A program made the translations under genes and the position numbers. Of a DNA stretch of 64,000 nucleotides, positions 326-53,872 are shown in pieces. Position 1 is the stretch's first letter. The number at the start of each line of letters is the position of its first letter. The notes under the pieces are model-generated. The model was not told where the DNA came from. It was given only the letters and a program-made list of their open reading frames with translations, and did not search any database. The DNA is from Alphaproteobacteria bacterium (lineage in GTDB: Bacteria; Pseudomonadota; Alphaproteobacteria; RUG11792), in contig JAFUQI010000060.1 of NCBI GenBank assembly GCA_017481035.1, positions 159-64,158 of the forward strand, read 5' to 3'.

Positions 326-1951
326 TTAATCAACTATTAATTTTCTAGCAGTTTCCAATGCTTCATTATTGATTGATTTTCCTGAAATCATTCGAGCTAT
401 CTCTTGAAGTTTATCTGATTCAGACAAAATCTCAGCATTAACAACGGCTATTGATTTTTGAAAACTTTTCTGTATTTTTATATGTTGATTTGATTTGGCT
501 GCAACCTGAGGAGAGTGAGTAATTGAAATTACTTGTATCGTTTCGGCAAGGTTTCTCATCTCGATTCCCATTGAATATGCGGCTAATCCACCTATACCAA
601 TATCAATCTCGTCAAAAATTATCGTTTTGGCGTTGAGGGTTTTGCCGACTACAACTTTTAAAGCAAAATTTAATCTGGCTAATTCACCTCCAGATGCTGT
701 AGTTTTAATCGAATTAAATACTGAAGATGTGTTATTAAAATTTGCCATAAAGTCTATAAAATTTTTGCCTTCCTGTGTTTCAACACTATCCGACTCTGCA
801 ACAAATATCTTAAAAACTGCATTTTGAAGCATAAGCTTTGGTAAAAGTTCATTTATTAAGTTTGAGAGATGTTCCGCGGCCTGAGCTCTATAGGAAGTTA
901 GAATTCCTGCATATTTCTCGTATTCTGTTTTTGCCTTGTCGTAATCATCTTGTAAGCTATTTAGTTTGTCTGAAAAGTCTTTGGAAATATTTAATTTATT
1001 TTTTATTTCAAGTAAAAATTCATACAATATACCAGGCGAAACGTTATACTTTCTTGCAAGTGTACGTATCGTTGACAATCGATCATCTATTTCTTGTAGC
1101 TTTTTAGTGGCGTCTTCGCCTTCAGATGAGATTGACAGTAACTCTGATGAAATATCTGCTAATTCGATTGATATCGCGTCAATTCTTTCGCTTAAGCTTG
1201 CTATAGAAACATCATCGACCCTTGACAGGTATTTTGATATCAATGCAAATTTGTTGTCAGCATTTATTGCATTCATTATATCTGCAGATCGCTTAATTGC
1301 CTCAATATTAGATGAAAGTTTTGCAATTTTTATTCTTGATTCAAGTAAAGTTGTTTCTTCATTTATTTGTATATTCGTATCTTCCAATTCTTTTGCTGCT
1401 TGCAAAAAATATTCCTTATCGCGTTCAATTAATTTTGCATCATCTTTTATTTTTTGAAGTTCTTTTTCTATATCCTTTAATGTAATGAACGTATTTCTAA
1501 CTTTGTTTAATACATCTAGAGAATCCTTATTAATCGAACTCATAAATCTATCCAACAAAATAAGTTGATCTTCGCTTTTTCTTATTGTGTCAAGTTGTCC
1601 TGTTATATCTACGATATCGTTAAAAATCTCTTTCAAATGCTTAACACTTGCGTTAAGTTCGTTTATATACACTGAAGATTTGCCGTTTTTGTCTATAACC
1701 CGTTTTATTGAGTGTATTGGATTTCCAATGCTATCATATTGATCTTTAAAGCACAGCTCTACAGATGTTGTTAAATCTTTGTTTTTTTGTATATCCTTGC
1801 TAGATAAATTTCCAAAACAAAATTTTATCGCATCTATGATAATTGATTTTCCAGCACCAGTTTCTCCTGTAATCACATTAAAATCTTTCGAAAAATTTAC
1901 TTCTAATTCGTCTATAATTATAAAGTTAGTTATCGATATTGTTGTAAGCAC
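326..1951 (-). CDS. recN: DNA repair protein RecN
   Basis: 541 aa. Has N-terminal Walker A GETGAGKS, a long coiled-coil middle, a C-terminal SMC/ABC signature ASGGELARLNFALK and Walker B IIFDEIDIGIGG. Confidence 0.9.
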   Translation of the reverse strand: MLTTISITNFIIIDELEVNFSKDFNVITGETGAGKSIIIDAIKFCFGNLSSKDIQKNKDLTTSVELCFKDQYDSIGNPIHSIKRVIDKNGKSSVYINELNASVKHLKEIFNDIVDITGQLDTIRKSEDQLILLDRFMSSINKDSLDVLNKVRNTFITLKDIEKELQKIKDDAKLIERDKEYFLQAAKELEDTNIQINEETTLLESRIKIAKLSSNIEAIKRSADIMNAINADNKFALISKYLSRVDDVSIASLSERIDAISIELADISSELLSISSEGEDATKKLQEIDDRLSTIRTLARKYNVSPGILYEFLLEIKNKLNISKDFSDKLNSLQDDYDKAKTEYEKYAGILTSYRAQAAEHLSNLINELLPKLMLQNAVFKIFVAESDSVETQEGKNFIDFMANFNNTSSVFNSIKTTASGGELARLNFALKVVVGKTLNAKTIIFDEIDIGIGGLAAYSMGIEMRNLAETIQVISITHSPQVAAKSNQHIKIQKSFQKSIAVVNAEILSESDKLQEIARMISGKSINNEALETARKLIVD

Positions 1952-2187
1952 AAGAGAATCTCAGGCACATTATAATACAAAAACATTTTACACAATTTAC
2001 ATGTTTCCATGCAATTTTCTTCATCACAATAAATGCCACCTGTAAAGCTGGCACTAACAAGCACCTTAACAACTAATAAGTTTTAGTAAGAAGAAAAACC
2101 AGTCGTTGCATTGATAATGATAAACTTCTAGATACCTAAACAATACAAGCGTTGATAGGCATTACGATAACAATGTATTGATAGCAT

Positions 2188-2245
2188 GTGGCGTCAAGCG
2201 CCATTCACAGCCGCATGCCTATGCGCGATACAATAAATCGATATA
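2188..2245 (+). repeat. GC-rich hairpin module with a tgcctatgcgc..caata tail (intergenic repeat family)
   Basis: gtggcgtcaagcgccattcacagccgcatgcctatgcgcgatacaata. The same module type recurs at 2563-2605, 41896-41947, 44352-44400, 45049-45097 and 58706-58750. Confidence 0.7.
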
Positions 2246-2268: not shown

Positions 2269-2605
2269 CCTAAGCCACCTTAACTTCGTAAGAAGTGAAC
2301 CAGTTGCGGTCGCAGCGCGACAGCCGTACTACAACAACTATATATAAACAAACATATAAGACTACTACTATATTATTTTTGAAAAAGTATTGTAGTATCA
2401 CATCGTTTCTTACTGATAATATATAACATTATGTAAGCTTAATGTTTAATGCGTCTCGGTATAGGACGATATTTAAAGCCGGCCGCGCCTCGCGTATTTT
2501 CAGCGGCCGGCTTATGAAAGAATAAGCATCCTATAACGTTTTATAATCATTAAGCATGCCGTGAAAATGGCGCTTTGCGCCGCATGCCTATGCATAATGC
2601 AATAA
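2269..2605 (+). repeat. Left copy of a composite repeat of about 337 bp; inverted partner at 58706-59042
   Basis: By-eye alignment to the reverse complement of 58706-59042 shows roughly 15 differences. One central stretch, of which I checked well over 100 bp, is identical (cggtcgcagcgcgacagccgtactacaacaactatatataaacaaacatataagactac...). It contains the GCCGGCCGC...GCGGCCGGC and GGCGCtttGCGCC hairpins. Confidence 0.85.
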
Positions 2606-2699: not shown

Positions 2700-3371
2700 T
2701 TACATTACAATTAATTTGCCATTTTTAATACGAACGATCTTATCCATCTGCGTCGCAAGTTCAACATTATGTGTTGCAACTAATAAAGATGTTTTTTTGT
2801 TTTTAAGAATTTTGATGAAAAGTTCAAATATTTTAGATGCGTTTTCTGGATCTAAATTTCCAGTTGGCTCATCTGCAATCACGAGTTTCGGATCATTAGC
2901 TAAACTACGAGCTATTGCTATTCTTTGACGTTCACCACCTGAAAGTTGATTTGTCTTATGATTAAGCCTGTGACTCATGCTAACTTCACATATAAGTTCC
3001 TCTGCTTTTTTCTTTGCATTTTTAAAGGTTTTGCCATTAATTATCTGGGGCATTATAACGTTTTCCAAAGCTGTAAAGTCTGGAAGCAAGTTATGAAATT
3101 GATACACGAATCCTAATGTGTTGCAACGTAATTTTGTCTTGTCATTATCAGACATTTTTTTTGTATTTATTCCATTAAAGATTACATCACCAGACGTTGC
3201 TGAATCTAGAAGTGATGCAATATGTAAAAGCGTCGATTTTCCAGATCCGCTTTGTCCAAGAAGAGCTAAACTTATTCCTTCTCTTATTGATAAGTTTACA
3301 CCATCTAAAATCTGAATTTCTGTAGCAGCGGTCCTATATGATTTTTTTATATCTTTTAATTCTAATATCAT
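2700..3371 (-). CDS. lolD: Lipoprotein-releasing ABC transporter ATP-binding protein LolD
   Basis: 223 aa. Has Walker A GQSGSGKST, signature LSGGERQR and Walker B LVIADEPTGNLD. Overlaps the rnc stop by 4 nt. Confidence 0.75.
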   Translation of the reverse strand: MILELKDIKKSYRTAATEIQILDGVNLSIREGISLALLGQSGSGKSTLLHIASLLDSATSGDVIFNGINTKKMSDNDKTKLRCNTLGFVYQFHNLLPDFTALENVIMPQIINGKTFKNAKKKAEELICEVSMSHRLNHKTNQLSGGERQRIAIARSLANDPKLVIADEPTGNLDPENASKIFELFIKILKNKKTSLLVATHNVELATQMDKIVRIKNGKLIVM

Positions 3372-12518: not shown

Positions 12519-12827
12519 TTCTTATTATCTAAGACAAAACAGCTGTAAATATATTAACAGATTAATGTTAAAACTTTCAACAAGCTATGGAAATAGGCAT
12601 TGATAAAAAACTTATTCGTGGCACGTTACATTCTAGCAGTCTGCTTTAATACAGTCACAATATCTTATAAGTAGAATTACTATCTATACTTTTAAAAGGC
12701 TTAGGTTGCAATACTATAATCATTATATCAATTCTATTAAGCCTTACCTGTCAATGTTCACTTACATAAGGTTATATATTATCAGCAAAAAAAGGATGTG
12801 GAAGGTTAATTGTTTCTAACACTAATG

Positions 12828-19043: not shown

Positions 19044-19189
19044 TGCTAGTATTCTCCTGTGACTATATTTATATTTTACTATGTTTTGATAGTATTTGCA
19101 AATTTTGTGTGTATTGTGAAAAATATTTTGTTAACAATTATTGTTGTTGATTTTTGAACTTTCAGATTACATTAAACTTTCCATCAATC

Positions 19190-19238
19190 TTTATGGGAGT
19201 ATTAAATTCTTTCTTTAATACAAGCATTTATGTTAAAC
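19190..19238 (+). promoter_or_regulatory. Copy 1 (weakest) of the TTTATGGGAGT-N9-hexamer-N17-TTAAC-type upstream element
   Basis: TTTATGGGAGT(19190-19200)-N9-TTTCTT-N17-TTAAAC(19233-19238). A canonical TATAAT lies at 19240-19245 and the ATG is at 19274. Confidence 0.45.
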
Positions 19239-19273: not shown

Positions 19274-22117
19274 ATGAATAAACTTTATACATATATGTTT
19301 GTGTTATCTATATCACGTATGATATATTCATGTGATGATATGTATTATATGTACGAATGTGATGATGATATACAACCTATAACTTTAATAGATAACAATA
19401 TAACTTTAAAGGATGGAGAAATAACATTAGATGATATCTCTAGACAGACAGATAGTGCAAGTACTTTAACAGAGGAAGAGAAGCAAGTTAAGTATATATT
19501 AGACTTTGACTTACCTATTGGAGAAGGAAAGTATAGAGAATATGAATATAAGATAGAAGAAATAATTAAGACTGTTACAGATGAAAACGGAAATATGTCT
19601 TATTCTAAGTATGTTGAGGCTTGGAATAATAAACATAGAGACAATAGAATAGATATATCAAAAGATTGGTTCTATGGTAATACTGTTGAGGACTTGTTGG
19701 GATTAAATATAAATAATCAAGAAGAACTAAGAAATTATTATCATAATATTCTAGTTAAACGAATTGCCAGCGATGAACGTAATCATAGAATGCTGCCAGA
19801 GTTTACTTCTTTTATAACATATGATCTTAATAATATGAAAGACGAAGAGTTTAAAGCTACGATACTTCAAGGAATACTCGTAAACATGCTTTACGGAGTA
19901 AGTCTTTCAACTTATATTGAAAAACTGAAGCATAAAATTACTAAAATGAATTATGAAGGGTTTAACGTTGCTGTAAATACACTGAAGTTAAAATTAGAAG
20001 AAGCATTTCCAAATAGCAATCCTAATGATTTAAAAAAGGAATTGTTTGGGTTTCTGCTAGATAATGACTTGATAAAGGACAACTTTGATCTTTTTGCACA
20101 AGTATACGATGCTTTCATACAATCAAACGCAACTGAACCGAAAATATATGCAGAAGAAATATCAAAAAAATTAGGGAAAGACGATAAACGGAAAGAAATT
20201 GATGGAATTATAAAAGAACTACTTAAATTAGATGCAAAGAAATTACACGAAGATGTAAACAAAAAAGAAATGTCTTTTTCTCAGTATAGAAAATATTTTT
20301 ACGTATATCCATACAATAAGAATTATAATAACAAACAAAAAATTATACAAAGAATTGACGAAGTAAAGGATGAAATATATAAAACAATTAATGATTCAGG
20401 GCTTCTTGGATTCTTAAATACTGCTTTTGTTAAGGAAGGCAATGTAGAATATGCAGATGGATTTGCGCGAGCTGAAATATTGAGTCCAACTTTTCAAGGT
20501 TACGCCACGAAGAACCAACATGGTTATATTTTAGGAAAACAAAATGTTGTTATGCTGTTCAACATAATACAACAAAAATCAGAAAACGAATATACGTACG
20601 ACATGTCGCTATGCAAAGCTATAGATTTTTCGAATTGTTTTGAAACAGATGATTACGGAGTTCCAACTGAGAACTTTTGTAATTATGTCAATTATATATG
20701 CGAACAAATAAACAAGGCTTTAAATCATGGTGTTGAAATAAAGAATGTAAATAAAGATGAAGAAATGGTTGAAAGAATATGTGTTATAAAGTCTAATAGC
20801 ACAAATGATGACATTCTTGTTACAGTAACGCAATTTTTTCCAGGAGATAGTAAGACATGTCATTTTGTATTTAACACTATCTTTAAATATCCATTTTGCA
20901 AAATTTCTGGAAACGAAGATGAACACAAAAACTTTATGGGAAAAATTTTAAAAGTAATGGGTGAACTTAAAAGAAAAAATTTTTCTAACTATGACCTGTG
21001 TCTAATAAAATCACAAGATATTTTTGAATCAAAGGAGGAATACAACAACGCTAGAGATGAATACAAAATATTTTTTGATTTTGAAAATCTTCTCAAATCG
21101 TATGAAATATGCGGTATAAATAATCTGAAAATAAATGAATTAACTTGTGATGATACAAACAAATTAATAAGCATATCTTTCGTTCAAAAAGATAATCATA
21201 GTCAAGGTAAATTTATAACAAAAAAAACAGAAGAATTGTCTATAAGTGAAGCTAATGCGTTGTTAACTAAAAATAATTATCAAGGTACAACAAACGGACT
21301 GAAAACAATAAGAATAACAAGAGATCAAGTTAAAAACGAAACAAAAATTGAAGTTGATTTTGACACAGAAAAAAAAGCTAGAACAATAAAAAAAGCTGGA
21401 ACAATTAAAGTTATAACTGATACTTGCGACACACTAACTGATGATAAACTTAAACTACTGAGATATCCAGTTTCTCTAATCCCTAGTGACTTAACGTCAT
21501 CTGAAGTACATTATAACTTTAACGGCAAAGTGATCAAAATTCAATGTCCATTTGACAAATATGAAGAATATTTGTTTAAACTTATAAAGTTATCAAATAG
21601 CGACATACAACAAGACACTTACATAGAAAAAAACGGTATATTCTTATCAGATGGAATGAATATATTGGATGACTCTGATTATGAAAGTATCAAAAAAGGT
21701 GAAATATATAGGCTTTATACTAGTACCAAAACATCACTTCATGATAAGTATAATCCATATTTTTATCAACTGGATACTAGTAACAAAGATAAAGATATAA
21801 AGGTATTAAATCCTATTAAATACGCTTATGCTAAACGCCTTTCCAAACTTTCGCCTAGTAGGATTCCAGATAAAATAAACATAATGTCGAAATCAACAGC
21901 CGAAAAACAAACAAAATTAAAATATATATTATGCACAGACGGACAGAGCTGCAAGTTTCCATTTTGGCAAATAGCAAATTTATACTATAAAGAAAATGAG
22001 TCTGGATACTTATTAATTGATAGAATAACAAAAGATTATAAAGCGAGAGGAGAGTATCGAAAGGATGTTCGGGTTTGTGCAATTAAGTCTTTACATCAAG
22101 CGACAGAGTTAGAATAG
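19274..22117 (+). CDS. Large Cys-rich orphan protein with a hydrophobic N-terminus (possible secreted or effector protein)
   Basis: 947-aa uninterrupted ORF. The N-terminus is MNKLYTYMFVLSISRMIYSC, with well over a dozen Cys, mostly in the middle and C-terminal parts. I recognise no catalytic motif. Confidence 0.6.
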   Translation: MNKLYTYMFVLSISRMIYSCDDMYYMYECDDDIQPITLIDNNITLKDGEITLDDISRQTDSASTLTEEEKQVKYILDFDLPIGEGKYREYEYKIEEIIKTVTDENGNMSYSKYVEAWNNKHRDNRIDISKDWFYGNTVEDLLGLNINNQEELRNYYHNILVKRIASDERNHRMLPEFTSFITYDLNNMKDEEFKATILQGILVNMLYGVSLSTYIEKLKHKITKMNYEGFNVAVNTLKLKLEEAFPNSNPNDLKKELFGFLLDNDLIKDNFDLFAQVYDAFIQSNATEPKIYAEEISKKLGKDDKRKEIDGIIKELLKLDAKKLHEDVNKKEMSFSQYRKYFYVYPYNKNYNNKQKIIQRIDEVKDEIYKTINDSGLLGFLNTAFVKEGNVEYADGFARAEILSPTFQGYATKNQHGYILGKQNVVMLFNIIQQKSENEYTYDMSLCKAIDFSNCFETDDYGVPTENFCNYVNYICEQINKALNHGVEIKNVNKDEEMVERICVIKSNSTNDDILVTVTQFFPGDSKTCHFVFNTIFKYPFCKISGNEDEHKNFMGKILKVMGELKRKNFSNYDLCLIKSQDIFESKEEYNNARDEYKIFFDFENLLKSYEICGINNLKINELTCDDTNKLISISFVQKDNHSQGKFITKKTEELSISEANALLTKNNYQGTTNGLKTIRITRDQVKNETKIEVDFDTEKKARTIKKAGTIKVITDTCDTLTDDKLKLLRYPVSLIPSDLTSSEVHYNFNGKVIKIQCPFDKYEEYLFKLIKLSNSDIQQDTYIEKNGIFLSDGMNILDDSDYESIKKGEIYRLYTSTKTSLHDKYNPYFYQLDTSNKDKDIKVLNPIKYAYAKRLSKLSPSRIPDKINIMSKSTAEKQTKLKYILCTDGQSCKFPFWQIANLYYKENESGYLLIDRITKDYKARGEYRKDVRVCAIKSLHQATELE

Positions 22118-22150: not shown

Positions 22151-22258
22151 CAAATAGAATCATTATAGTTGTGCTAATAATATATAGTTATTGAGCATAA
22201 GCCGGCTGCGGAAAATGCGCGCGGCGCAGCCTGCTTGAATGTTCATCTTATACTAACA
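22151..22258 (+). repeat. Intergenic element of about 105 bp, copy 1 (tagaatcattatagtt...GC hairpin...tatactaa)
   Basis: Aligns by eye in the same orientation with 38225-38328. The core is ataAGCCGGCTGCggaaaatgcgcgcgGCGCAGCCTGCTTgaa. Confidence 0.75.
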
Positions 22259-22428
22259 ATCATAAAATGTTAAGTTTATAAAAGGTTTTATAATATAATA
22301 ATATACTGTGTGGTACTGTTTATCTGTTGTTATATTTGTTTGTTTTAATCGCGACAGCGATTGATTAATTTTTTGCTAAAACTTATTGGTTGTTAGAATA
22401 ACTGTTAATGAATGCATTGTAAATATCG

Positions 22429-26708: not shown

Positions 26709-28466
26709 ATGCAAACAACCTGGAAACTAGAGGATATTTATAATTCTCCAAGTGACGAACAATTGAGAAAAGATCAAGAGTTCGTCAAGTCCAGTGTTTC
26801 AGATTTTAAACAAAAATATCAAAATAAGCTTTCTGTAGATTTTCTCGTTGCATCGATCAATGAATATGAATCCATAATAGGGATGATTGAGAAAATCGCA
26901 TCTTATTCGTTTTTGTATACGCAAACTAGATTAGACGATTCAGATGCACTTGCATTCTATCAAAAAACAGTTGAGTTTTTAACATCAGTTGAATCTGAAT
27001 TGGTTTTTTATGAACTTGAAGTTGCCAAACTTGATTATAATAAAACAATTGAAGTTAGCGGCGATTATAGGTCTTGGATTGAAGGGCTTTTCAGGTTTAA
27101 AGACCATATGCTTTCAACTCAAGTTGAAGAAACCTTATCGAAAAAAAGTATAACGTCTATAATTGGGTGGATTCGTCTTTACGATGAGATTTTGAGTCGT
27201 ATTGATTTTGACTTTGAGGGTAAGACAATTAGTTTGCCAGAGATAATGGAAATAGCAAGCCATTCCAATAATTCAGAAAAACGAGAAAAAGCATCACGTA
27301 TAGCAGGCGCAAGGCTTGAACAAGAAAGTTTTTATATAAAACATATCTATAATAACATATTAGTTGATAAGTCAACAAACGATAAGTTAAGAGGATATGC
27401 AAAGCCAGAATCGTCTAGGCACCTTAATAACAATATAGATCAAATTTCTGTAGATAACTTGGCAGATGCAGTAGTAGATGGATATAAAGAAACTTCTCAG
27501 AAGTACTATAAGCTTAAAGCAAAACTATTAAATAAAACGAATTTTGAATATTGGGATAGAAATGCTCCTGTTCAGTTAAGCGAAATTTTAAATAGAAAGT
27601 TTGAATATAGAGAAGCATGCGATATTGTTCTGAACATGTTCGGTCGGTTTTCGCGTGTGTTTCAAGACATAGCAAGAGACTTTATAGAAAAATCTTGGAT
27701 AGACGTTTATCCAGCCAAGAGCAAGACATCTGGAGCATTCTCTCATAGCTGCTGCTGTGATGTTCATCCATATATACTTTTAAATTACTTTGGAAGCGTT
27801 CGTGATATTTCAACATTAGCCCATGAACTTGGACATGGGATACACCAAACCTTGAGTTCAAAGAATGGGAGTCTTTTGTCAAATACTCCTATTACGCTTT
27901 CAGAGGTTGCTTCACTATTTTCTGAGAAGCTTCTGTTTGAGGATATGTATCAACAAACAAAGAATGATCTTGAGAGGATTGATTTAATTTGTTCTAAATT
28001 GGATGATACTATTAACTCAGTAATGAGACAAATCGCATTTTTCGAATTTGAAAGAAGAGCTCACGAATTAAGGAAAGAACGCGAACTTTCAAATCAAGAC
28101 TTTTGTAAAATTTTCCTAGACACGCAAAACGAGTGTTTAGGGAGTGCAGTCAACATAGATCCTGTTATAGGAAATTACTGGACATATATATCGCATTTCT
28201 TCCATTCGCCATTCTATGTTTATGCATATGCATTTGGTGAAATATTTACAAATGCTCTCTATGAGACATACAAAAAATCAGGATCAGAATTTGTTGAAAC
28301 GTACATAGATGTTCTATCACGTGGAGGTATTGATCGGTATGATGTTGTGGCTTCAAGGTTTGGTCTTGATACAGGTAGTGTAAAATTTTGGAAAAGTGGT
28401 GTAGAATTAATAAAGGATCAAGTTAATAACCTAGAGACGCTCTGTGATAGCGCAAAGATTATTTAA
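26709..28466 (+). CDS. pepF: Oligoendopeptidase F (M3B family)
   Basis: 585 aa. Has a Zn motif in LAHELGHGIH, and the length and layout fit M3B. Confidence 0.8.
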   Translation: MQTTWKLEDIYNSPSDEQLRKDQEFVKSSVSDFKQKYQNKLSVDFLVASINEYESIIGMIEKIASYSFLYTQTRLDDSDALAFYQKTVEFLTSVESELVFYELEVAKLDYNKTIEVSGDYRSWIEGLFRFKDHMLSTQVEETLSKKSITSIIGWIRLYDEILSRIDFDFEGKTISLPEIMEIASHSNNSEKREKASRIAGARLEQESFYIKHIYNNILVDKSTNDKLRGYAKPESSRHLNNNIDQISVDNLADAVVDGYKETSQKYYKLKAKLLNKTNFEYWDRNAPVQLSEILNRKFEYREACDIVLNMFGRFSRVFQDIARDFIEKSWIDVYPAKSKTSGAFSHSCCCDVHPYILLNYFGSVRDISTLAHELGHGIHQTLSSKNGSLLSNTPITLSEVASLFSEKLLFEDMYQQTKNDLERIDLICSKLDDTINSVMRQIAFFEFERRAHELRKERELSNQDFCKIFLDTQNECLGSAVNIDPVIGNYWTYISHFFHSPFYVYAYAFGEIFTNALYETYKKSGSEFVETYIDVLSRGGIDRYDVVASRFGLDTGSVKFWKSGVELIKDQVNNLETLCDSAKII

Positions 28467-30947
28467 GAGTATATTAATATCAGGCGCAATTGTCGTAGGA
28501 GTCGTTGGATCTCTACAGCTTTCGTATATCCAAAAAAAGATTATAGGTTTTGCTGTAGGAAATCATGCTAAGATAGATTTTAAAAGCACAGAAGGTTTTT
28601 TCCCATTTTTATTCAAAGTAAATGGACTACGTATAGATGTAGACTCAACAAATATAGATATTGATTATGCTAATGTTAACTTGAGTAAACATCTTTTTAA
28701 TCTTAAAAGACTAGATATTGGATCTATAAATATACAGCAAGGCAAAAAAACTGATAGTATGCCTTTAGATTATATTTGCGCAATAATACCTGCTTTTAAT
28801 CAAAAGTTAGTCAAGAATTTTTCGATCAAAAAAATTAAGTCAGGAGAACTTGAGTTTTCTGATATAGAGTATAAGACTCAGAAAAAAACACACAATAGAT
28901 CATTGACAATGCTTACTCCATTTGGAAAAGCAGATGCAGCTTGGAGTTTCAAAAAAGGAGATGTTCAAGTCGATGCTGTATGTGGCACATTATTTAATTT
29001 AAAGCTTGATTACAATAATTCGAACAAAGCAGTTAACCTTGATGCAAAATATAATGGTTCTGAGTACAAAGCTGATGGTAAGCTTAAAAAATTTAAAGAA
29101 TTTGAGGGAAGCGTTAAAATTCCATTTTTTAAAGACGGGATTAAGACGAAGCTTTCGTTAAAGAAGGACGAAGTGTTTGCAGATATAACTCTTAAAGAAC
29201 CAAGCATTAATGGTAAGGTTTCTTATAATATCTCAAATTCAAAAATTATTGTTCAAAGTATCGATATACCTGAATATAAGGCAAAAGTTGCATCATTTTC
29301 TATTCCAGCTAATCAGAAGGTTCCTGAGCTAAAATTAAATTTTGAAAAAGGTTCTGTAATTGCAACAGATGTCTTTCTGGACATTGATAAATTTAATTTC
29401 GATAAACTAAAGATCATTGACGTTGCAATTGAACAGTTCGGAGATTTCGGAGTAACTGGACTTGTTAGCGGAACTGGGATATATCATGGAAATTATATGG
29501 ATCTTGATCTTGTCGCTAAAAATTGCAAATCACCTATAGGCAAGCTTCCAGAAGTCGATGTAAAAGCAATTTGTAAAAAGGATATTATAACTGCCGATGT
29601 AGAATTTGATTTCTTTATGAAACGTCATAGAGTGCGTATTGATATATCTGCAGATAACTGGATTCCGAATAAAGATAGCAAAATAAAACTTAATACAAAA
29701 GGAGCTTTGAATTTTTTGGGGAGCAAGATTTTTAAAAAAGGATTAATTAGCTATAACATTGGCGTTGGTGGATCTATTGCAAATCCTAGTGTATTAGGTA
29801 ATATAGATTTTAAGAATGGGATGTATGTAAATCCAGAGAATGGCGTTTATATAAAAGATATAACTGCTAATTGCGTGCTAAATAATAATGCAATTGTTAT
29901 AAAAAACATAAAAGCCTTCGATTGCTTTAAACAAAAAGGAAACGTAACAGGTAGCGGAAAAATATCTTTATCTGATTCGACTCTTGATACTGATATTTCT
30001 TTAAAAGTAGATAAGTTAAGACCAATAACTGTTCCATGGCTTGATGCAACGTTTTCTGGTAATTTATCATTACAAGGAGACATGTTCGGATCACTGAAAC
30101 TTGCTGGTTCCTTGTTTTCAGAAAAGCCAACAATAGATATAACTGGTCTTGTTATTTCGAATGTAAGGAATTTTGATATTGCACAACAGACATCAAAGAG
30201 TTATCTAAAAAAAAAAATTCATTTGAAGGTTTGAAAAAATATATATTTGATGTGCGTCTTGATATAAAAGATAACATGCAGATAAAGGGATTAGGCATTG
30301 ATAGCATATGGAATGGATCAGGCACGCTAACTGGTAGCTTCTATAACCCACGATATGATTCTAAGATAACTTTTAAAAAAGGTACATTTAAGCTTACAGA
30401 CGCATCCTTTAAGCTAAAGAGAGGCGAGATGATATTTGACTCGGATGGACAGAATATAGATGTATCTGCTGAAAAGAAAATTGATTCAATAATCGTTGGA
30501 GCAAGACTAACTCAAAATAAAAGCAGAACATCTAATGTTAAGTTTTATTCAACTCCGTATATGAGTCAAAGAGATATATTGTCTTATATTCTTTTTGACA
30601 AGAATGCAACAGATATATCGATGAGTGAAAGTATGGCTCTCTTTTCCATTATGGGCAAGCTAACGAATGCAACAGCTGGATTTAGCCTTGTAGATAAGAT
30701 CAAAGATGTTTTCGGTATTGATTCAGTAACGATCAAAAAAAATACAAGTGTTAAAAATGGAGAATATAATGCATTAAGTATCGGAAAGAAGATAGGAAAG
30801 CTAAACATATCTGTTGATCAAGGATCTGCAAAAGATACAACCAATGTTGCGATTGACGCAAAGATTGCTAAGAACGTAAAGGTATCAGTTGATATGTCAG
30901 GAAAAAACTCTGTTGGGGCAGGAATACTATGGAGCAAAAGATATTAA
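28444..30947 (+). pseudogene. tamB: TamB-like translocation/assembly module protein, split by a frameshift at an A11 tract
   Basis: The N-terminal ORF (596 aa, TM anchor) and the C-terminal ORF (238 aa, DUF490-like ending GAGILWSKRY) abut at 30231-30234. The frames can be joined across the A run at 30207-30217. Confidence 0.6.
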
Positions 30948-38452: not shown

Positions 38453-38995
38453 ATGTCACAAAAAGAACGATTTATATGTTACGATATTATTGTTGGTATA
38501 GCTGTAATAGGATATCTCGAGATATTACAAATTTATTAGATATCAATACGCAAGATCATATTAATAAATGTTTTCTAAAACAACAGGGCGATGTTGATAA
38601 AGTTATTAAATCATTAGTCGCATCAGGTATTAATATGTCATCTATAACGTATTCTAAGAGTCTGGGAGACTGGAGTAAAGGTAAGACCATCGATTCAACA
38701 ATAGTTGTTAGAACAAAGAACCTTAAGTTCTTAGATACACTTGATTTGCCAATTAGTAATGCAAGTGTTTCTAGATTTGATTATGATTATTCTGATTCTG
38801 AAAAACTAATAGAATCATTAGAAGAAAGAGCAACTGATGATGCACAGCATATCTAAATTAGCATTAGAAAAGAATGTCATTATCGATTACATAAAAGATT
38901 ATCATATCTATCAATTTCAAAGCTCATTAAAAAACTTACAAGACGGTAACATAAAATATACAGTTAATGTATATATGCGCAAACATATTAGGTAA
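38453..38995 (+). pseudogene. Degraded SIMPL/DUF541-like periplasmic protein gene spread over three reading frames
   Basis: A TM-anchor peptide (MSQKERFICYDIIVGIAVIGYLEILQIY*, 38453-38539) lies in one frame. The 126-aa ORF lies in a second frame and ends ...EERATDDAQHI*. A third frame continues SKLALEKNVIIDYIKDY...GNIKYTVNVYMRKHIR* to 38995. Confidence 0.45.
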
Positions 38996-39009
38996 CATTT
39001 TCATAAACT

Positions 39010-39058
39010 TTTATGGGAGTTTTTAATTTTTGACAACATTTAAGTATGTAGGTTAACA
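39010..39058 (+). promoter_or_regulatory. Copy 2 of the TTTATGGGAGT-N9-TTGACA-N17-TTAACA upstream element (before tkt)
   Basis: The box is at 39010-39020, TTGACA at 39030-39035 and TTAACA at 39053-39058. The ATG at 39094 is 35 nt further on. Confidence 0.6.
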
Positions 39059-40989: not shown

Positions 40990-41065
40990 TATCAGCGTTT
41001 ATCACGATTATCTATGAGATTGCATTTACCACGAAAATATAATAGTTGACACAGATACATAAACA

Positions 41066-41114
41066 TTTATGGGAGTTTTTAGAGTTTGACTTATATCTTT
41101 ATACTAAGCTAACC
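41066..41114 (+). promoter_or_regulatory. Copy 3 of the upstream element (before the OMP gene)
   Basis: TTTATGGGAGT(41066-41076)-N9-TTGACT(41086-41091)-N17-CTAACC(41109-41114). The ATG is at 41152. Confidence 0.55.
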
Positions 41115-44550: not shown

Positions 44551-45048
44551 AAACAAAGAAGCATTTTATAACATTTTATCATAATTAAGCACACAGCACA
44601 GAATAGCGCTAATAGCAGCATGCTTGCTGATATGTCAAACTTATAACAAACACGCATAAAATAAACATAAAATTTACCGAACATCACAAAGCAACATATG
44701 CAACCGCAATCGAAAATAGCAGACAGCTCAAAGCGACATCACAAACCTAAAATATCAACAACAAAACCTAAGCCACCTTCCACGCAAGTGGAACCAGTGG
44801 CTGGGACACAACGACTATATCAAACACAAAACCTTACCTATACTATATATCATTATTCCTACTACTATATTTTTTTGAAAAAATGGTGGCAGTGCCACTT
44901 CCATTTCCTTAAACCAATATATAACCTTAACGTGCCTTGACATATAGTGAAGCTTCATTGATATAATGCGAACAGCCTTTTTGAAATATATAGTTATCAA
45001 AGCATCATAATAGCCATGCATTCAATATGTAGCAGTATAATGCAATAT

Positions 45049-45097
45049 TTAAGCTGGCGGCGTCACGCGTCATTCCCGCATCCTGCTTATGCGCAAC
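45049..45097 (+). repeat. GC-rich hairpin module with a ctgcttatgcgcaac tail
   Basis: ttaagctggcggcgtcacgcgtcattcccgcatcctgcttatgcgcaac. Confidence 0.6.
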
Positions 45098-45185
45098 AAT
45101 AAACTATAATCTTCATTGATATAATTGCCATAGTATGGCAACATAAGCCTTTTTGAAAATATATATAGTAATCATATTGATAGTG

Positions 45186-45208
45186 CGCAATTGATATTAT
45201 CAATTGCG
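45186..45208. repeat. 23-bp perfect palindrome CGCAATTGATA-T-TATCAATTGCG
   Basis: Read directly. A second perfect copy lies at 58608-58630 and a degenerate copy at 38097-38117. Confidence 0.85.
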
Positions 45209-45292
45209 TCTAAGAAATAGCAGTATTAAAGATGTCTTCTACAATATAGCATTTTATTGCTGTATTTATGTAATATAACAATAATAGAATGT

Positions 45293-49741: not shown

Positions 49742-50581
49742 TTAGAAACCAAGTGCGTTCTTAAGCCACTTGAAAGGCTTTAATATAATATCGAAAAATG
49801 AAAAAGTGTTATTATTTGTGTTCAATAATGTATTGTTATCATTTGTATTCAATTTTGAGATATGATTATTCCAAATTATTTGAGCTTCTTCTTTTGTGGC
49901 ATTTACCAATGATTCTGCAAGTCTTCTATTTGTCTGAAATATCATATAACACATAGGTTGTCTCCAGTTACCACCCCAAATATTAAAACCATGTTTTTTG
50001 AAAATTTGTGCGATTTCTGGTGTTATCATGCCAGGACGTTGAAGGCCTCGGTTCATAAACCTATCATCTGAACCTTTTTCTTGTATTATTGTTTTATGTA
50101 TTGCATCTAACTCTGCTGGATCTGATATATACCTGCTCAAATCATCTTTTACTTGTTTTTTGTCTTCTTCATAATCTGAAGATCTTTGTGGAATTACATA
50201 ATTATGAATAGCATCAAAAGACGGATTCATATATGGGTTTACATCGATAGCAAGTCCAAAGGCATGAATAGATGGAGTTTTTGTTGGGTCGTTTCGTATC
50301 TCTCTATGATTATAAATACCAATTGAATAAATTGGAAAATTCATATCATATAGTTCTTTAAAAATTTCCTGGATTGAATCGCAAGCGACATCCAAAGCCT
50401 GGACCTTCATTGTTGATTCTCCCCCTGAAAAAGTTCTGTGTTGTATTTCTATTGTTTGTATTCGTCCTCCTATCTTTCCTTCTAATTCTTCTAGTTTCAT
50501 AAATTCCGCAGAATTAATTGCATTCGCAAAAAGCAATAACCCACAAATTTTTTTTACCATATTCATAATAACAATAAACAT
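49742..50581 (-). CDS. Secreted M15-family (VanY/DD-carboxypeptidase-like) peptidase homolog
   Basis: 279 aa. Has a signal peptide, the SxHxxGxAxD motif in SIHAFGLAIDVNP, and the later block GFNIWGGNW...MCYMIFQ. Confidence 0.6.
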   Translation of the reverse strand: MFIVIMNMVKKICGLLLFANAINSAEFMKLEELEGKIGGRIQTIEIQHRTFSGGESTMKVQALDVACDSIQEIFKELYDMNFPIYSIGIYNHREIRNDPTKTPSIHAFGLAIDVNPYMNPSFDAIHNYVIPQRSSDYEEDKKQVKDDLSRYISDPAELDAIHKTIIQEKGSDDRFMNRGLQRPGMITPEIAQIFKKHGFNIWGGNWRQPMCYMIFQTNRRLAESLVNATKEEAQIIWNNHISKLNTNDNNTLLNTNNNTFSFFDIILKPFKWLKNALGF

Positions 50582-50623
50582 CTACTTGCGAAAGTATAAT
50601 ACTTAACTGCAAAATAGTCAATA

Positions 50624-50917
50624 TTAAAAAGATTTTTCAAATATACCTTTAAAAAAGATATTATTAAAAGGCGTTAATTTTGAAGTAAGCTTATATTCAT
50701 TACCGTTCCATCTAATAGCAGATATTCTTTTATATCTGAACGATGGAGGTGGTTTTGGAAAAATGACATTATATTGAGATTTATTTAGTTGATCTGGAGC
50801 TATATTCGCTCTTGTGTTTATAATATCATTATAAATTTTTGCTGTTGTTGAAGTTATGTCTTCATTTTTTTCTAGCAATACTATGCGTTCATATAGTGTA
50901 GAAATTAGTTTCTTCAT
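50624..50917 (-). CDS. Phage/GTA head-tail adaptor (head closure, RcGTA g7-like)
   Basis: 97 aa. The pattern LYERIVLL...TRANIAP...ISAIRWNGNEYKLTS...FFKGIFEK fits the Phage_H_T_join layout. Directly follows the g6-like gene. Confidence 0.5.
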   Translation of the reverse strand: MKKLISTLYERIVLLEKNEDITSTTAKIYNDIINTRANIAPDQLNKSQYNVIFPKPPPSFRYKRISAIRWNGNEYKLTSKLTPFNNIFFKGIFEKSF

Positions 50918-50932
50918 TTTATGCCTCCATTT

Positions 50933-51460
50933 TTAATGTAGAGTTAATGGACGATGGCTATGTATAATATGTTTGACATATTTTGACTCGAGAACGTCCT
51001 CATCAGAACATTCGTAGATATTTTTTGCTATTTGAAGAACTGCAAATTGTAAGTCACAAGATACCTCAAATTGCTTATCAGTTATGCCTGCTGTATATAT
51101 AACTTCAATTGGATCCTTGTATCCATTTGTAATTATTATCGTTTTATCATTGCATGAATCTACTCTATATTCTATATCTTCCTTTGTTTTTTCATTAATG
51201 CGTTTTACAGAATATACTTTTATAACTTGTCTTATCGGAAGGATAACTTTTCGTGTTGGAGAAATTTCATTCGTATAATCTGTATATTTGAACTTTTTCT
51301 TTAAAATAGGTCTTTCTATATTTTTTTCTAATATATCAGTTGCCATATTAATAATTGTTTTAAGGTAACCATCTTCATGATCATGATCAATTCTTAGATG
51401 CGCTTTTAGTATTGAGATTGGTAAAACATAAGAGTTTGCCTGTTCTATTACTATATTCAT
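50933..51460 (-). CDS. Phage gp6-like head-tail connector (RcGTA g6-like)
   Basis: 175 aa. The N-terminal SILKAHLRIDHDHEDGYLKTIINMATDILEKNIERPIL is the typical connector motif. Confidence 0.6.
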   Translation of the reverse strand: MNIVIEQANSYVLPISILKAHLRIDHDHEDGYLKTIINMATDILEKNIERPILKKKFKYTDYTNEISPTRKVILPIRQVIKVYSVKRINEKTKEDIEYRVDSCNDKTIIITNGYKDPIEVIYTAGITDKQFEVSCDLQFAVLQIAKNIYECSDEDVLESKYVKHIIHSHRPLTLH

Positions 51461-51521
51461 AATTTATTTCCTTTCAAAAACGATATTTAAAACGATGGTT
51501 TTTATCTCCATCCTAAAAATA

Positions 51522-51570
51522 TGTTAACGTAGGTTAATTTTTCGTGTCAAAAAATAAAAACTCCCATAAA
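51522..51570 (-). promoter_or_regulatory. Copy 4 of the TTTATGGGAGT-N9-TTGACA-N17-TTAACA upstream element (before the GTA g6-like gene)
   Basis: On the minus strand the box is at 51570-51560, TTGACA at 51550-51545 and TTAACA at 51527-51522. The start codon is at 51460. Confidence 0.6.
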
Positions 51571-52066
51571 AATTTATGTTTTTATAAATCTTACACGTCA
51601 GAAAATGCTTTGTTTTCAATAGCTGTTAATATCTCTGTGACCAAATATATTATGCTTGGGTGCTACTATAATAGTATCGCACAACCGACATAAGTCGAAT
51701 GCAGGTATAAAGAAGATTATTAAAAGAAATGGATGTTTTCTGTGGTACTGCAATCATTTTTAGTATTATTTGCCGTTGTTTTGCTAGTGACGCATAAGTT
51801 CATTTTTTATTAATTTGATTGTTAATTCATGAACTAGCTGCCTAATATCAGCTCGACAAAAAACATATAACTTTATGTAAAAATATTATTTAATAGGTAT
51901 CAAGAGCAATATTATTTTGCGACGTATAGCTCAATTTCAGCAATCTGCTTATCGTAATGCGATTGCTATCATACAAAATACTTGTATACAAGCTTCATTG
52001 ATATAATTGAACAGAAATAAATATAATTATTAATGATTTTTGTAAGTGTTTTTTTTATTCGTTTTT

Positions 52067-53872
52067 TCAACACTCACTCGTTTCAGAGTCACAGTCTTCA
52101 TAATACTCTTGATCGCATGAATCTGTTTCTATGTTAGAAGTCCTACGATGTTGGTTTAGATAATCTATTCTATTTTGTGGCAATACAAAAACTACATGAT
52201 CTCTATCACCGTCAAATTTTATACCTGTATTATTCTCTAGCGTTTCCAACCGCATATCTTTTCTTACATTTTTTGTTAAGTATGTACAATCTAAAGGCAC
52301 CCTAAATCGAACAGGACTATCTTCTGTACCTTGTAAAGTTATTGTAAAGTTTTGTGTTTGAGTTTCTATGTATTTTGGAAGTACGCATATTGAGTCTGCT
52401 TCAAATATACATTTGCCGTTAGACGCAAATGATTCAAGATCTCTAACATCAGTAAAATCTATAATCGATTCAGATCTATTTATTAATGTCCCATTTTCTC
52501 CAATATATAAAAATGTATTGTTTGCAAATTTCATATTCCCACAATTTTCAAATTCTGCTGAACTAGATGATATGCTTAGACCAGACTTTTCTGATATTGT
52601 ACTTTTAATATCGATCTTTCCAGTAGTTGGGATGTATTCGATGATGTCAATGCCATTTTCTCGCTCGGTGAAATATTCTTTTATTATTGTTTCATTTGTT
52701 ATATTGTTATCTGCTTTCCATTTAAGTAGAGCTATATTAATTAAATTTTTTAGTGTTTTATTTGTATCAATATCTTTAAGTTCATTCATCGCAATTATTT
52801 TGAAGGAATGGGCATTCTTTTCTAGCCACTTTTTATTGTCTTTTTGCCATTTTAATATTGAATTAGCTAGATCGCTTGCATTAATGCACTCATCTATGCC
52901 TAGTTTTTTATATGTTATATGTTTGATGCCACTTTGAACTTTTTTGTGACCGTTGTTTAGAAATTTATCATTAACTATTAATGTTCCACCAGTTATATCA
53001 ATGCTATTATAATTTATTGAATCTTTTAGCAATCTTAAATTTACAAAAGTTTTATCTTTTCCTGGCTTTAAAATTATATGTCCATAATTTTTAAAACCAT
53101 TTTTATACTCAAAATTTTCTCCATTTTGGCTACCAATTATTTCCAATGTTTCATTTTGAGAAATGTGTTTTTTATCTAGTTGATCTTCTTCAAATTCAAC
53201 TGTAATATTAACTGTTTTATTAATAAACTTTATTCCTGTTTCGTCTCTAATTGCTTGTAACAAGTTCTGGTAATTTTTATTAATATATTGACATTCCTTT
53301 GGTATGATTACAATCAGTGTCTTTTTGACCTCTTTTATATTGTATAAATCTACCGTTATACATTCAGCTCTTTTAGTTATTTTCTTTGGTATTATGATTC
53401 TAGATAACTCTTTCGGTTCAAGTAAAAAATTATGCTTAGAAAGATCATAACTTTCAGACATATCAAATATACTACCTGATTCACCAATAATAACAGCACT
53501 ATCGTCAGAGCCTATAGTGCTGTTCTCTTTAAGCTTTATTATTCCACTATTGTTAATATTAATTTCACTATTAAGTATGCCTGATATATTTATTATTCCT
53601 TTTTTGCCATTATTAAAAATTCCATTTCCTGTAATTGAAACATCAGAATTTTTGCTTGTATTAAAAGTACCGTGGTTATTTATTTCTCCATTTATGACAA
53701 AAGTTATACCGGATCCGTTATTTTCAATAGAACCACCTTCCAGAACATTTATGGTATTCTTTTCTGCTAAGTCTATCGTACTGTTAACATCGCATTTTAG
53801 TTTACCGCTAATAAAAAGTCCAGAACCTGGATCGTAGTAAGCTGTGGTTTTCTTTGTAGGTTTGCCATACAA
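52067..53872 (-). CDS. Asn/Gly-turn (beta-helix-like) repeat protein with two Cys-containing GIKF modules; the frame stays open upstream to 53944
   Basis: 601 aa. Has repeats such as IENNGSGITFVINGEINNHGTF..GNGIFNNGKKGIINISG. Shows an internal duplication (...IIPKECQYINKN...ETGIKFINKTVNITVEF versus ...RVPLDCTYLTKN...NTGIKFDGDRDHVVFVL). The tail is acidic and Cys-rich. The track start is a TTG. Confidence 0.65.
   Translation of the reverse strand: MYGKPTKKTTAYYDPGSGLFISGKLKCDVNSTIDLAEKNTINVLEGGSIENNGSGITFVINGEINNHGTFNTSKNSDVSITGNGIFNNGKKGIINISGILNSEININNSGIIKLKENSTIGSDDSAVIIGESGSIFDMSESYDLSKHNFLLEPKELSRIIIPKKITKRAECITVDLYNIKEVKKTLIVIIPKECQYINKNYQNLLQAIRDETGIKFINKTVNITVEFEEDQLDKKHISQNETLEIIGSQNGENFEYKNGFKNYGHIILKPGKDKTFVNLRLLKDSINYNSIDITGGTLIVNDKFLNNGHKKVQSGIKHITYKKLGIDECINASDLANSILKWQKDNKKWLEKNAHSFKIIAMNELKDIDTNKTLKNLINIALLKWKADNNITNETIIKEYFTERENGIDIIEYIPTTGKIDIKSTISEKSGLSISSSSAEFENCGNMKFANNTFLYIGENGTLINRSESIIDFTDVRDLESFASNGKCIFEADSICVLPKYIETQTQNFTITLQGTEDSPVRFRVPLDCTYLTKNVRKDMRLETLENNTGIKFDGDRDHVVFVLPQNRIDYLNQHRRTSNIETDSCDQEYYEDCDSETSEC

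Follow-up and report, generated by a model that had tools for sequence, protein, structure and literature searches.

The two near-identical sequences that lie some 56 kb apart and in opposite orientation in this DNA are the two youngest copies of a species-specific, non-coding and mosaic family of intergenic repeats, rather than unique sequence that was duplicated only here. There is nothing unusual in kind about the pair: the two youngest copies of a dispersed repeat happen to be inverted around a 56-kb segment. The stretch analysed here (the window, 64,000 nt) has a GC content of 32% and belongs to an uncultured alphaproteobacterium found in metagenomes of the animal gut. Its closest GTDB representative (L001) has a UvrA protein that is 81% identical, followed by rumen MAGs at 67-69%. 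Relatives of its RecN are merely 40-45% identical, and the more distant ones are labelled Paracaedibacteraceae or Rickettsiales.

The left arm (2271-2604, plus strand) occupies the 748-nt intergenic region between recN (326-1951, minus strand), its outer flank, and lolD (2700-3371, minus strand), its inner flank. The right arm (58705-59038, minus strand) occupies the 671-nt region between a bioY-like gene on the outer side (59135-59710, minus strand; PF02632 was found on the gene called in contig L088) and rpsT, the gene for S20, on the inner side (58185-58463, minus strand). Both intergenic regions are unusually long, and both arms are non-coding and carry modules A to E. According to a repeat finder, MAFFT and BLAST, 2271-2604 aligns with 59038-58705 over 334 nt without gaps, at 96% identity and with 14 mismatches, and the two inverted arms are spaced 56,100 nt apart. 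The BLAST match between them has an E-value of 1e-156 and, if one gap is allowed, reaches out to 2268/59042. The left arm is bordered by CTTACC and TTACAA, and the right arm by AAACCT and GCTAGC. The arms are by far the longest and most similar repeat in the window, the next-best intergenic pair being 131 nt long at 79%.

The 14 differences, seven transitions and seven transversions, fall at positions 2282, 2306, 2437, 2451, 2455, 2464, 2490, 2502, 2531, 2584, 2588, 2594, 2595 and 2599. They leave an identical core of 130 nt at 2307-2436 on the plus strand (58873-59002 on the right), which includes spacers specific to the pair. If the 14 differences were placed at random, an identical run of this length would have a probability of P = 0.013. 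The initial annotation had placed the repeats at 2269-2605 and 58706-59042, which is right to within a few bases, and its estimates of roughly 15 differences and of one long identical core agree with these counts. Gene calls likewise bear out its description of the bracketed segment as core genes running from lolD to rpsT, since the 56 kb carry housekeeping genes, including rnc, lepB, ffh, lpxD, mlaEF, tsaD, priA, tkt, an iscS-like gene and uvrA.

Each arm reads as a string of hairpins, with modules in the order A, B, C, D and E, sometimes followed by x and P. Module A (2271-2304, plus strand) consists of TAAGCCACCTT, a hairpin of the form (C/A)ACTTC-GTAA-GAAGTG and the sequence AACCAGT. In the arms its stem is CACTTC/GAAGTG and its loop, GTAA, is of the GNRA type; in a third copy a GCAA loop of the same type caps a different stem. 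Between modules A and B lies a GC-rich hairpin (about 2307-2325, plus strand). Module B (2358-2401, plus strand) is an AT-rich hairpin with CTAC...GTAG arms, of which partial copies occur at 44859-44882 and 62969-63008, and module C (2409-2447, plus strand) has a further copy at 12761-12800 on the minus strand. Module D (2472-2556, plus strand) features a GC-rich hairpin of 9-10 bp (GCCGGCCGC...GCGGCCGGC) followed by the hairpin GCTTAT-GAAAGA-ATAAGC, and its copy at 22201-22236 on the minus strand shows one compensatory stem change. Module E, the tail (2558-2604, plus strand), is a small GC hairpin joined to TGCYTATGCGCAATACAATA. The window contains six E-type modules, one of which, a solo E-like module (2167-2238, plus strand), sits 35 nt upstream of the left arm, where it creates an E-then-A adjacency.

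On the right, family homology continues past the arm into module x and palindrome P (CGCAATTGATAWTATCAATTGCG; 58606-58704, minus strand), so that the match between the right arm and the third copy extends beyond 334 nt. Palindrome P itself is found at 58606-58647 and at 45172-45210, accompanied by a conserved ATATTGATAG neighbour. A near-perfect GC-rich hairpin, GTGGCGGCTGCAA...TTGCAGCCGCCAC, lies at 58563-58599 between the repeat array and the promoter region of rpsT, and may be either the terminator of bioY or another repeat module.

Beyond the two arms, the window holds a third array at 44767-45210 on the plus strand. This array is diverged but colinear (A, B, ..., E, x, P), as seen by alignment and by nhmmer (E = 3e-118, with this copy included in the profile), and the order of the modules is colinear across all three arrays. 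A fragment comprising modules C-D lies at 22194-22318 on the minus strand and is 73-76% identical to the arms, and a profile search of the window placed fragments in 8-9 further intergenic regions. The same search found no family match inside genes, with the fragments at E < 0.001 and the three arrays all being intergenic. Five of the six intergenic regions of at least 600 nt clearly carry family sequence, and the sixth (51461-52066) has only a weak match.

The abundance of the family in the genome was estimated by placing Logan contigs of gut-metagenome run X1 on the arm at a likeness of at least 80% and summing their depths. Unique sequence in X1 has a depth of about 11-12 (10.8 for the comparison with P). 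The summed depth is 230-420 over module A (2264-2305), 220-325 over module B (2348-2389), 95-312 over module D (2474-2557), about 300 over module E, and about 1090 over palindrome P as against about 11 for unique sequence. These sums indicate about 10-35 copies of each of the four modules (about 20-35 of A, 20-28 of B, 10-28 of D and 25-30 of E) and about 100 copies of P per genome, all of them being figures that co-occurring relatives could inflate, as they derive from summed metagenome contig depth. The spacers at 2306-2333 and 2390-2403 have a depth of just 12-16 in X1, on one collapsed contig, and segment 2446-2473 has a depth of 28 made up of two variants, 13 and 15, which are the two arms. 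From this near-unique depth in X1 it follows that the inter-module spacers are restricted to the pair. As to whether the pair is special, which the initial annotation had made a matter of its orientation and of the number of equally similar copies, the outcome is divided: a single orientation is seen in the assemblies and modules exist in many copies, but there is no equally similar full-length copy.

The loose ends of contigs show where other members of the family depart from the arms. No fewer than six have the 59038/2268 boundary in common with the arms, and beyond it their flanks differ; for others the departure comes after 2304/59005, where a GC hairpin of another kind (GGTGGCAGTGCCACC) follows. 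A short unitig of single-copy depth, present in all of runs X1-X4, joins 59038 to 58698 and thereby links the end of an E module to the start of an A module. Since this joint is a short single-copy unitig flanked by multi-copy modules, the simpler reading is that it represents another locus at which family members stand head to tail, rather than the junction of a circle or a tandem.

Exact-pattern searches with module A, module B and palindrome P gave no match in GTDB representatives or JGI metagenome contigs, and BLASTN of the arm against plasmids and phages returned nothing. Judged by its sequence, the family appears to be new in sequence and ordinary in kind, and from the 64 kb of the genome read here it looks closest in kind to the REP/BIME mosaics of Enterobacteria and Pseudomonas. 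As those elements are described (PMC2817692, PMC3333891, PMC3116915), the two have in common a strictly extragenic location, short palindromic hairpin units in tens to about 100 copies (here depth-based metagenome estimates), mosaic arrays in which units and linker motifs recur in a set order, and GC-rich stems on an AT-rich background, with one stem showing a compensatory change. They differ in that REP/BIME sequences have no similarity to the family described here, and in that the array here is longer (334-440 nt) and is composed of at least five different modules, as opposed to alternating REPs. REP palindromes are further described as carrying a GTAG or CGTC tetranucleotide tag at one end (PMC3733652). 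Here such a tag is seen only in the CTAC...GTAG arms of the AT-rich module B, and the GC-rich hairpins of A, D and E are without it. Our inference is that these repeats are REP/BIME-like DNA, either selfish or structural.

Neisseria intergenic mosaic elements (NIMEs), Correia elements and Rickettsia palindromic elements are also dispersed non-coding hairpin repeats that fill the longer intergenic regions of small genomes, where they occur as mosaics and fragments and serve as substrates for recombination. The family described here resembles them as a set of dispersed intergenic hairpin mosaics and their fragments. Correia elements, however, are characterised by terminal inverted repeats of 26 bp and by a TA duplication, both of which the arms lack, and Rickettsia palindromic elements can also be inserted in frame within genes, whereas all copies seen here are intergenic. 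The PATEs derived from IS200/IS605 are similar to the arms in being non-coding, in lacking terminal inverted repeats and target duplication, and in having hairpins near their ends. Nevertheless, the end hairpins here (A versus E or P) are unrelated in sequence and the 5' flanks vary (TCTT, CAAA and ACAA before ACCTAAGCC) without a conserved target tetranucleotide. With both the conserved 5' target and similar end hairpins missing, assignment to the PATE class was rejected; neither tnpA nor tnpB was seen within the 64-kb window. Assignment to the MITE class was rejected as well: the head (TAAGCCACC...) bears no relation to the tail (...GCAATACAATA, or P), so that there are no terminal inverted repeats, the left and right flanks share no direct repeat that could be a target-site duplication, and the spacers at 2306-2333 and 2390-2403 and segment 2446-2473 exist only as a pair in X1.

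The age of the pair can be gauged from four further runs (X5-X8) that contain strains about 95-97% identical to the window at a coverage of 3-5x. A contig of 745 nt in X5 extends from recN across the spacer and enters module A at the same position (to 2300), and thus a family member was already present at the left site. Segments 2460-2487 and 2558-2571 have no contig at a likeness of at least 85% in any of these four runs (coverage 3-5x), in which the contigs over the arm cover the multi-copy modules only. As these pair-specific segments have no contigs in X5-X8, the present composite appears to be lineage-specific. The identical core includes spacers that otherwise evolve fast, and it therefore points to recency rather than to constraint. 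Furthermore, the stretch of 96% identity begins and ends where the conserved modules A and E have their outer edges. These boundaries fit gene conversion, because homology in A and E would allow a conversion tract to begin and end between members that have otherwise diverged.

On balance, we lean towards the arms being the most recently homogenised members of the family, made alike through gene conversion between copies that already existed. Under such a scenario, two members of the family would have been present in the recN/lolD and bioY/rpsT spacers, in opposite orientation, before one was copied onto the other by a non-reciprocal homologous event. The conversion tract would have had both its ends in the conserved outer modules, A and E, and would have carried along the otherwise fast-evolving spacers, and a later, shorter conversion patch may account for the 130-nt identical core. 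The resulting pair could then be a substrate for RecA-dependent inversion of the 56 kb between the arms. Conversion is probably the copying mechanism, which we infer rather than observe. The recent duplication or gene conversion that the initial annotation had proposed thus has some support as to its recency, from the clustered differences (P = 0.013), from the spacers within the core and from the segments lacking in X5-X8, and is amended in that no unique DNA was privately duplicated.

Several observations bear on how the second copy came about, and a transposition-like copy is the main rival to gene conversion. Copy-and-paste by some transposase would yield the same pair, and since both arms seem to be without close counterparts in the strains of X5-X8, a simple conversion from locus to locus explains the data incompletely. 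It is conceivable, though on present evidence rather unlikely, that a transposase encoded elsewhere in the genome recently inserted either the 334-nt unit or the longer array from A to P (about 440 nt) at its second site, as a non-autonomous element like a MITE, PATE or REPIN. Such an element would be in keeping with a dispersed family confined to intergenic DNA, with the sharp boundary at 59038/2268 common to at least six other copies, and with subterminal hairpins in the absence of terminal inverted repeats, as in elements derived from IS200/IS605. The CTAC...GTAG arms of module B recall the GTAG-tagged REPs (PMC3733652), and the single-copy unitig from E end to A start could mark where a mobile element is joined in tandem or as a circle, which would tell against conversion. 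Neither arm, however, shows terminal inverted repeats or a target-site duplication, the bases 5' of module A vary among copies without a conserved target tetranucleotide, and the window has no transposase gene. Moreover, the genome has just two copies of the unit's spacers, meaning that the full unit has not proliferated, and the left site already held module A in a strain about 95% identical. Because of these features (no terminal inverted repeats, no target duplication, no 5' target, two spacer copies and a left site that was already occupied), gene conversion is favoured over transposition. A bolder version, which we regard as unlikely, is that the A-to-P array of about 440 nt is an undescribed and still active non-autonomous mobile element, or a lineage-specific multi-copy structured RNA, of which the 96% pair would be the latest copy and the E-end/A-start unitig the intermediate. 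If this were true, copies of the family would drive extensive loss of synteny among relatives. A further alternative attributes the similarity of the arms to selection on a duplicated functional non-coding unit, namely a small RNA gene or a regulatory leader/terminator cassette, and this we consider quite improbable. Both strands of the repeat do fold better than shuffled sequence (z of about -3), a GNRA loop caps module A in the arms and a different stem in the third copy, module D at 22201-22236 shows its one compensatory stem change, and the right arm is directed towards rpsT. The GNRA loop and the compensatory pair in module D are hints compatible with REP-like DNA or with RNA hairpins. 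On the other hand, the covariation term of RNAalifold on the three copies is unfavourable (+7.2), and Rfam gave no match at gathering score over the window and, at a permissive E of up to 10, only chance-level hits (E > 2) over 1952-2699. The arrays have no consistent orientation relative to the genes beside them, being in sense at rpsT and in antisense at both the left arm and the 45-kb copy, and the identical core spans spacers that are not conserved in the family, which again speaks for recency and not for constraint. A search for RNA runs with the repeat returned none, and contigs of the X10 metatranscriptome cover recN and lolD, not the repeat. Promoter-like sites were not in excess in the left region (3 versus 4.4 expected); the right region had 9 versus 4.0 +/- 2.4 expected, and only two of these lie within the arm. 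No terminator was found in a scan of the two regions. The arms contain no tRNA or tmRNA and no open reading frame longer than 61 aa, and none of their reading frames is kept in the third copy.

The orientation of the 56-kb segment was followed in contigs from five samples, recovered by exact-protein look-ups. Contigs L081, L082 and L083 join lolD, the 748-nt spacer with its arm, and recN, and L087 and L088 join eno/bioY, the 671-nt spacer with its arm, and rpsT. Where they align, these contigs match the window at 99.9-100% identity. They read through the arms without any Ns and preserve all 14 differences, the left arm being identical in L081-L083 and the right arm in L087 and L088. Each flank stays linked to its own diagnostic variants on both sides of the core, and these contigs contain neither recN-rpsT or lolD-bioY joins nor chimeric arms, although assemblies give the majority arrangement and a minority inverted subpopulation would be invisible in them. 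A search for Nanopore DNA runs with the repeat returned none. GC skew tracks gene strand: it changes at about 19 kb and 43 kb and runs through both arms without a break. Neither the contigs of the five samples nor the GC skew gave evidence of inversion. Gene strand and GC skew switch together (-/+/-) at about 19.1 kb and 43.1 kb, and the plus-strand block is centred at about 31.2 kb, close to the midpoint between the two arms (about 30.65 kb), a match that could be coincidence or the trace of nested symmetric inversions.

A comparison of synteny with relatives, which the initial annotation had proposed, is uninformative on inversion. L001 keeps rpsT-trxB-uvrA and has unrelated DNA upstream, relatives of RecN fall into three different neighbourhoods, and almost no gene order around recN is conserved among relatives of the lineage. 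The relatives are too rearranged for the ancestral order to be read from them.

A perfect core of 130 nt is well above the minimal length that RecA needs, and the pair is consequently a legitimate potential substrate for inversion. It is a possible substrate and not a demonstrated one, since the sampled assemblies all have one orientation. The suggestion in the initial annotation that recombination between the repeats would invert everything between them accordingly holds as a potential, by virtue of the 130-nt core, and not as an occurrence, given the one arrangement in five samples and the continuity of skew and strand. Like the rRNA operons, IS copies and prophages between which large inversions take place (PMC9584773), the arms form an inverted pair with ample perfect identity that brackets tens of kb of housekeeping genes; however, they are much shorter than rRNA or IS repeats, and no inverted isomer was detected. 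It is highly improbable that the pair acts as an active switch, with the 56-kb segment repeatedly inverted by RecA-dependent crossover within the 130-nt core and both orientations coexisting. The inverted orientation, the 334 nt at 96% identity and the perfect core would all suit such a switch, as would the presence of recN and priA, which suggests that recombination functions are at least partly retained, and inversions between inverted repeats are common in bacteria (PMC9584773). Yet the contigs of five samples show one arrangement only, the chimeric arms expected from crossover were not seen, and GC skew has no discontinuity at the arms. No invertase gene adjoins either arm, the neighbours being recN, lolD, rpsT and bioY. 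A site-specific invertible segment was considered and rejected, as the ends of the segment have no recombinase and each arm, at 334 nt, is a member of a dispersed family. It is harder still to believe that the pair is an assembly artefact, with a collapsed or mis-joined repeat placing the 56-kb segment arbitrarily. Short-read unitigs at k = 31 do break within the repeat, and bubble-popping merges the arms in some runs. An apparent A>C change at 59003 in all Logan contigs is best put down to the loss of the rarer arm variant through such popping, given that the ENA contigs have A at this position. The artefact is nonetheless largely refuted by the contigs of the five samples, which cross each arm without Ns and agree base for base with the window, and by the 14 fixed differences and the separate arm variants at single-copy depth (13.2 and 14.9) in X1. 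In addition, the two contig-naming schemes (k141_ and XIEF21 scaffolds) suggest two different assemblers, and the 130-nt core is shorter than k = 141, assuming that the k141_ prefix denotes k-mer length.

The pair is of interest chiefly to annotation and as a warning to assemblers. In this small, AT-rich alphaproteobacterium of the gut, a private family of mosaic hairpin repeats fills the long intergenic regions; these repeats break short-read assemblies and could seed rearrangements. The inverted pair is the clearest site at which to ask whether such repeats invert segments of core genes, and in the present data they do not. At the window ends, two contigs of other samples stop near 185 and 314, and L087 reaches only about 290 nt past 64000; as contigs of other samples stop there, repeats appear to bound this contig-sized block. 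A palindrome of 30 nt lies at 206-235 of the window.

Other features of the window were also recorded. Phage- or GTA-like genes lie amid housekeeping genes at 49742-51460 on the minus strand, among them a head-tail connector (PF05135; 50933-51460) and a Peptidase_M15_4 (49742-50581). Three large open reading frames have no Pfam match at E <= 1e-5: 19274-22117 (947 aa), 28444-30234 (596 aa) and 52067-53872 (601 aa). A motif of the form ...CATAAAC.TTTATGGGAGT... occurs at 19175-19214, 38995-39034, 41051-41090 and 51514-51579 (minus strand), in sense orientation and 60-100 nt 5' of four gene starts, and is a candidate for a common promoter or leader element.
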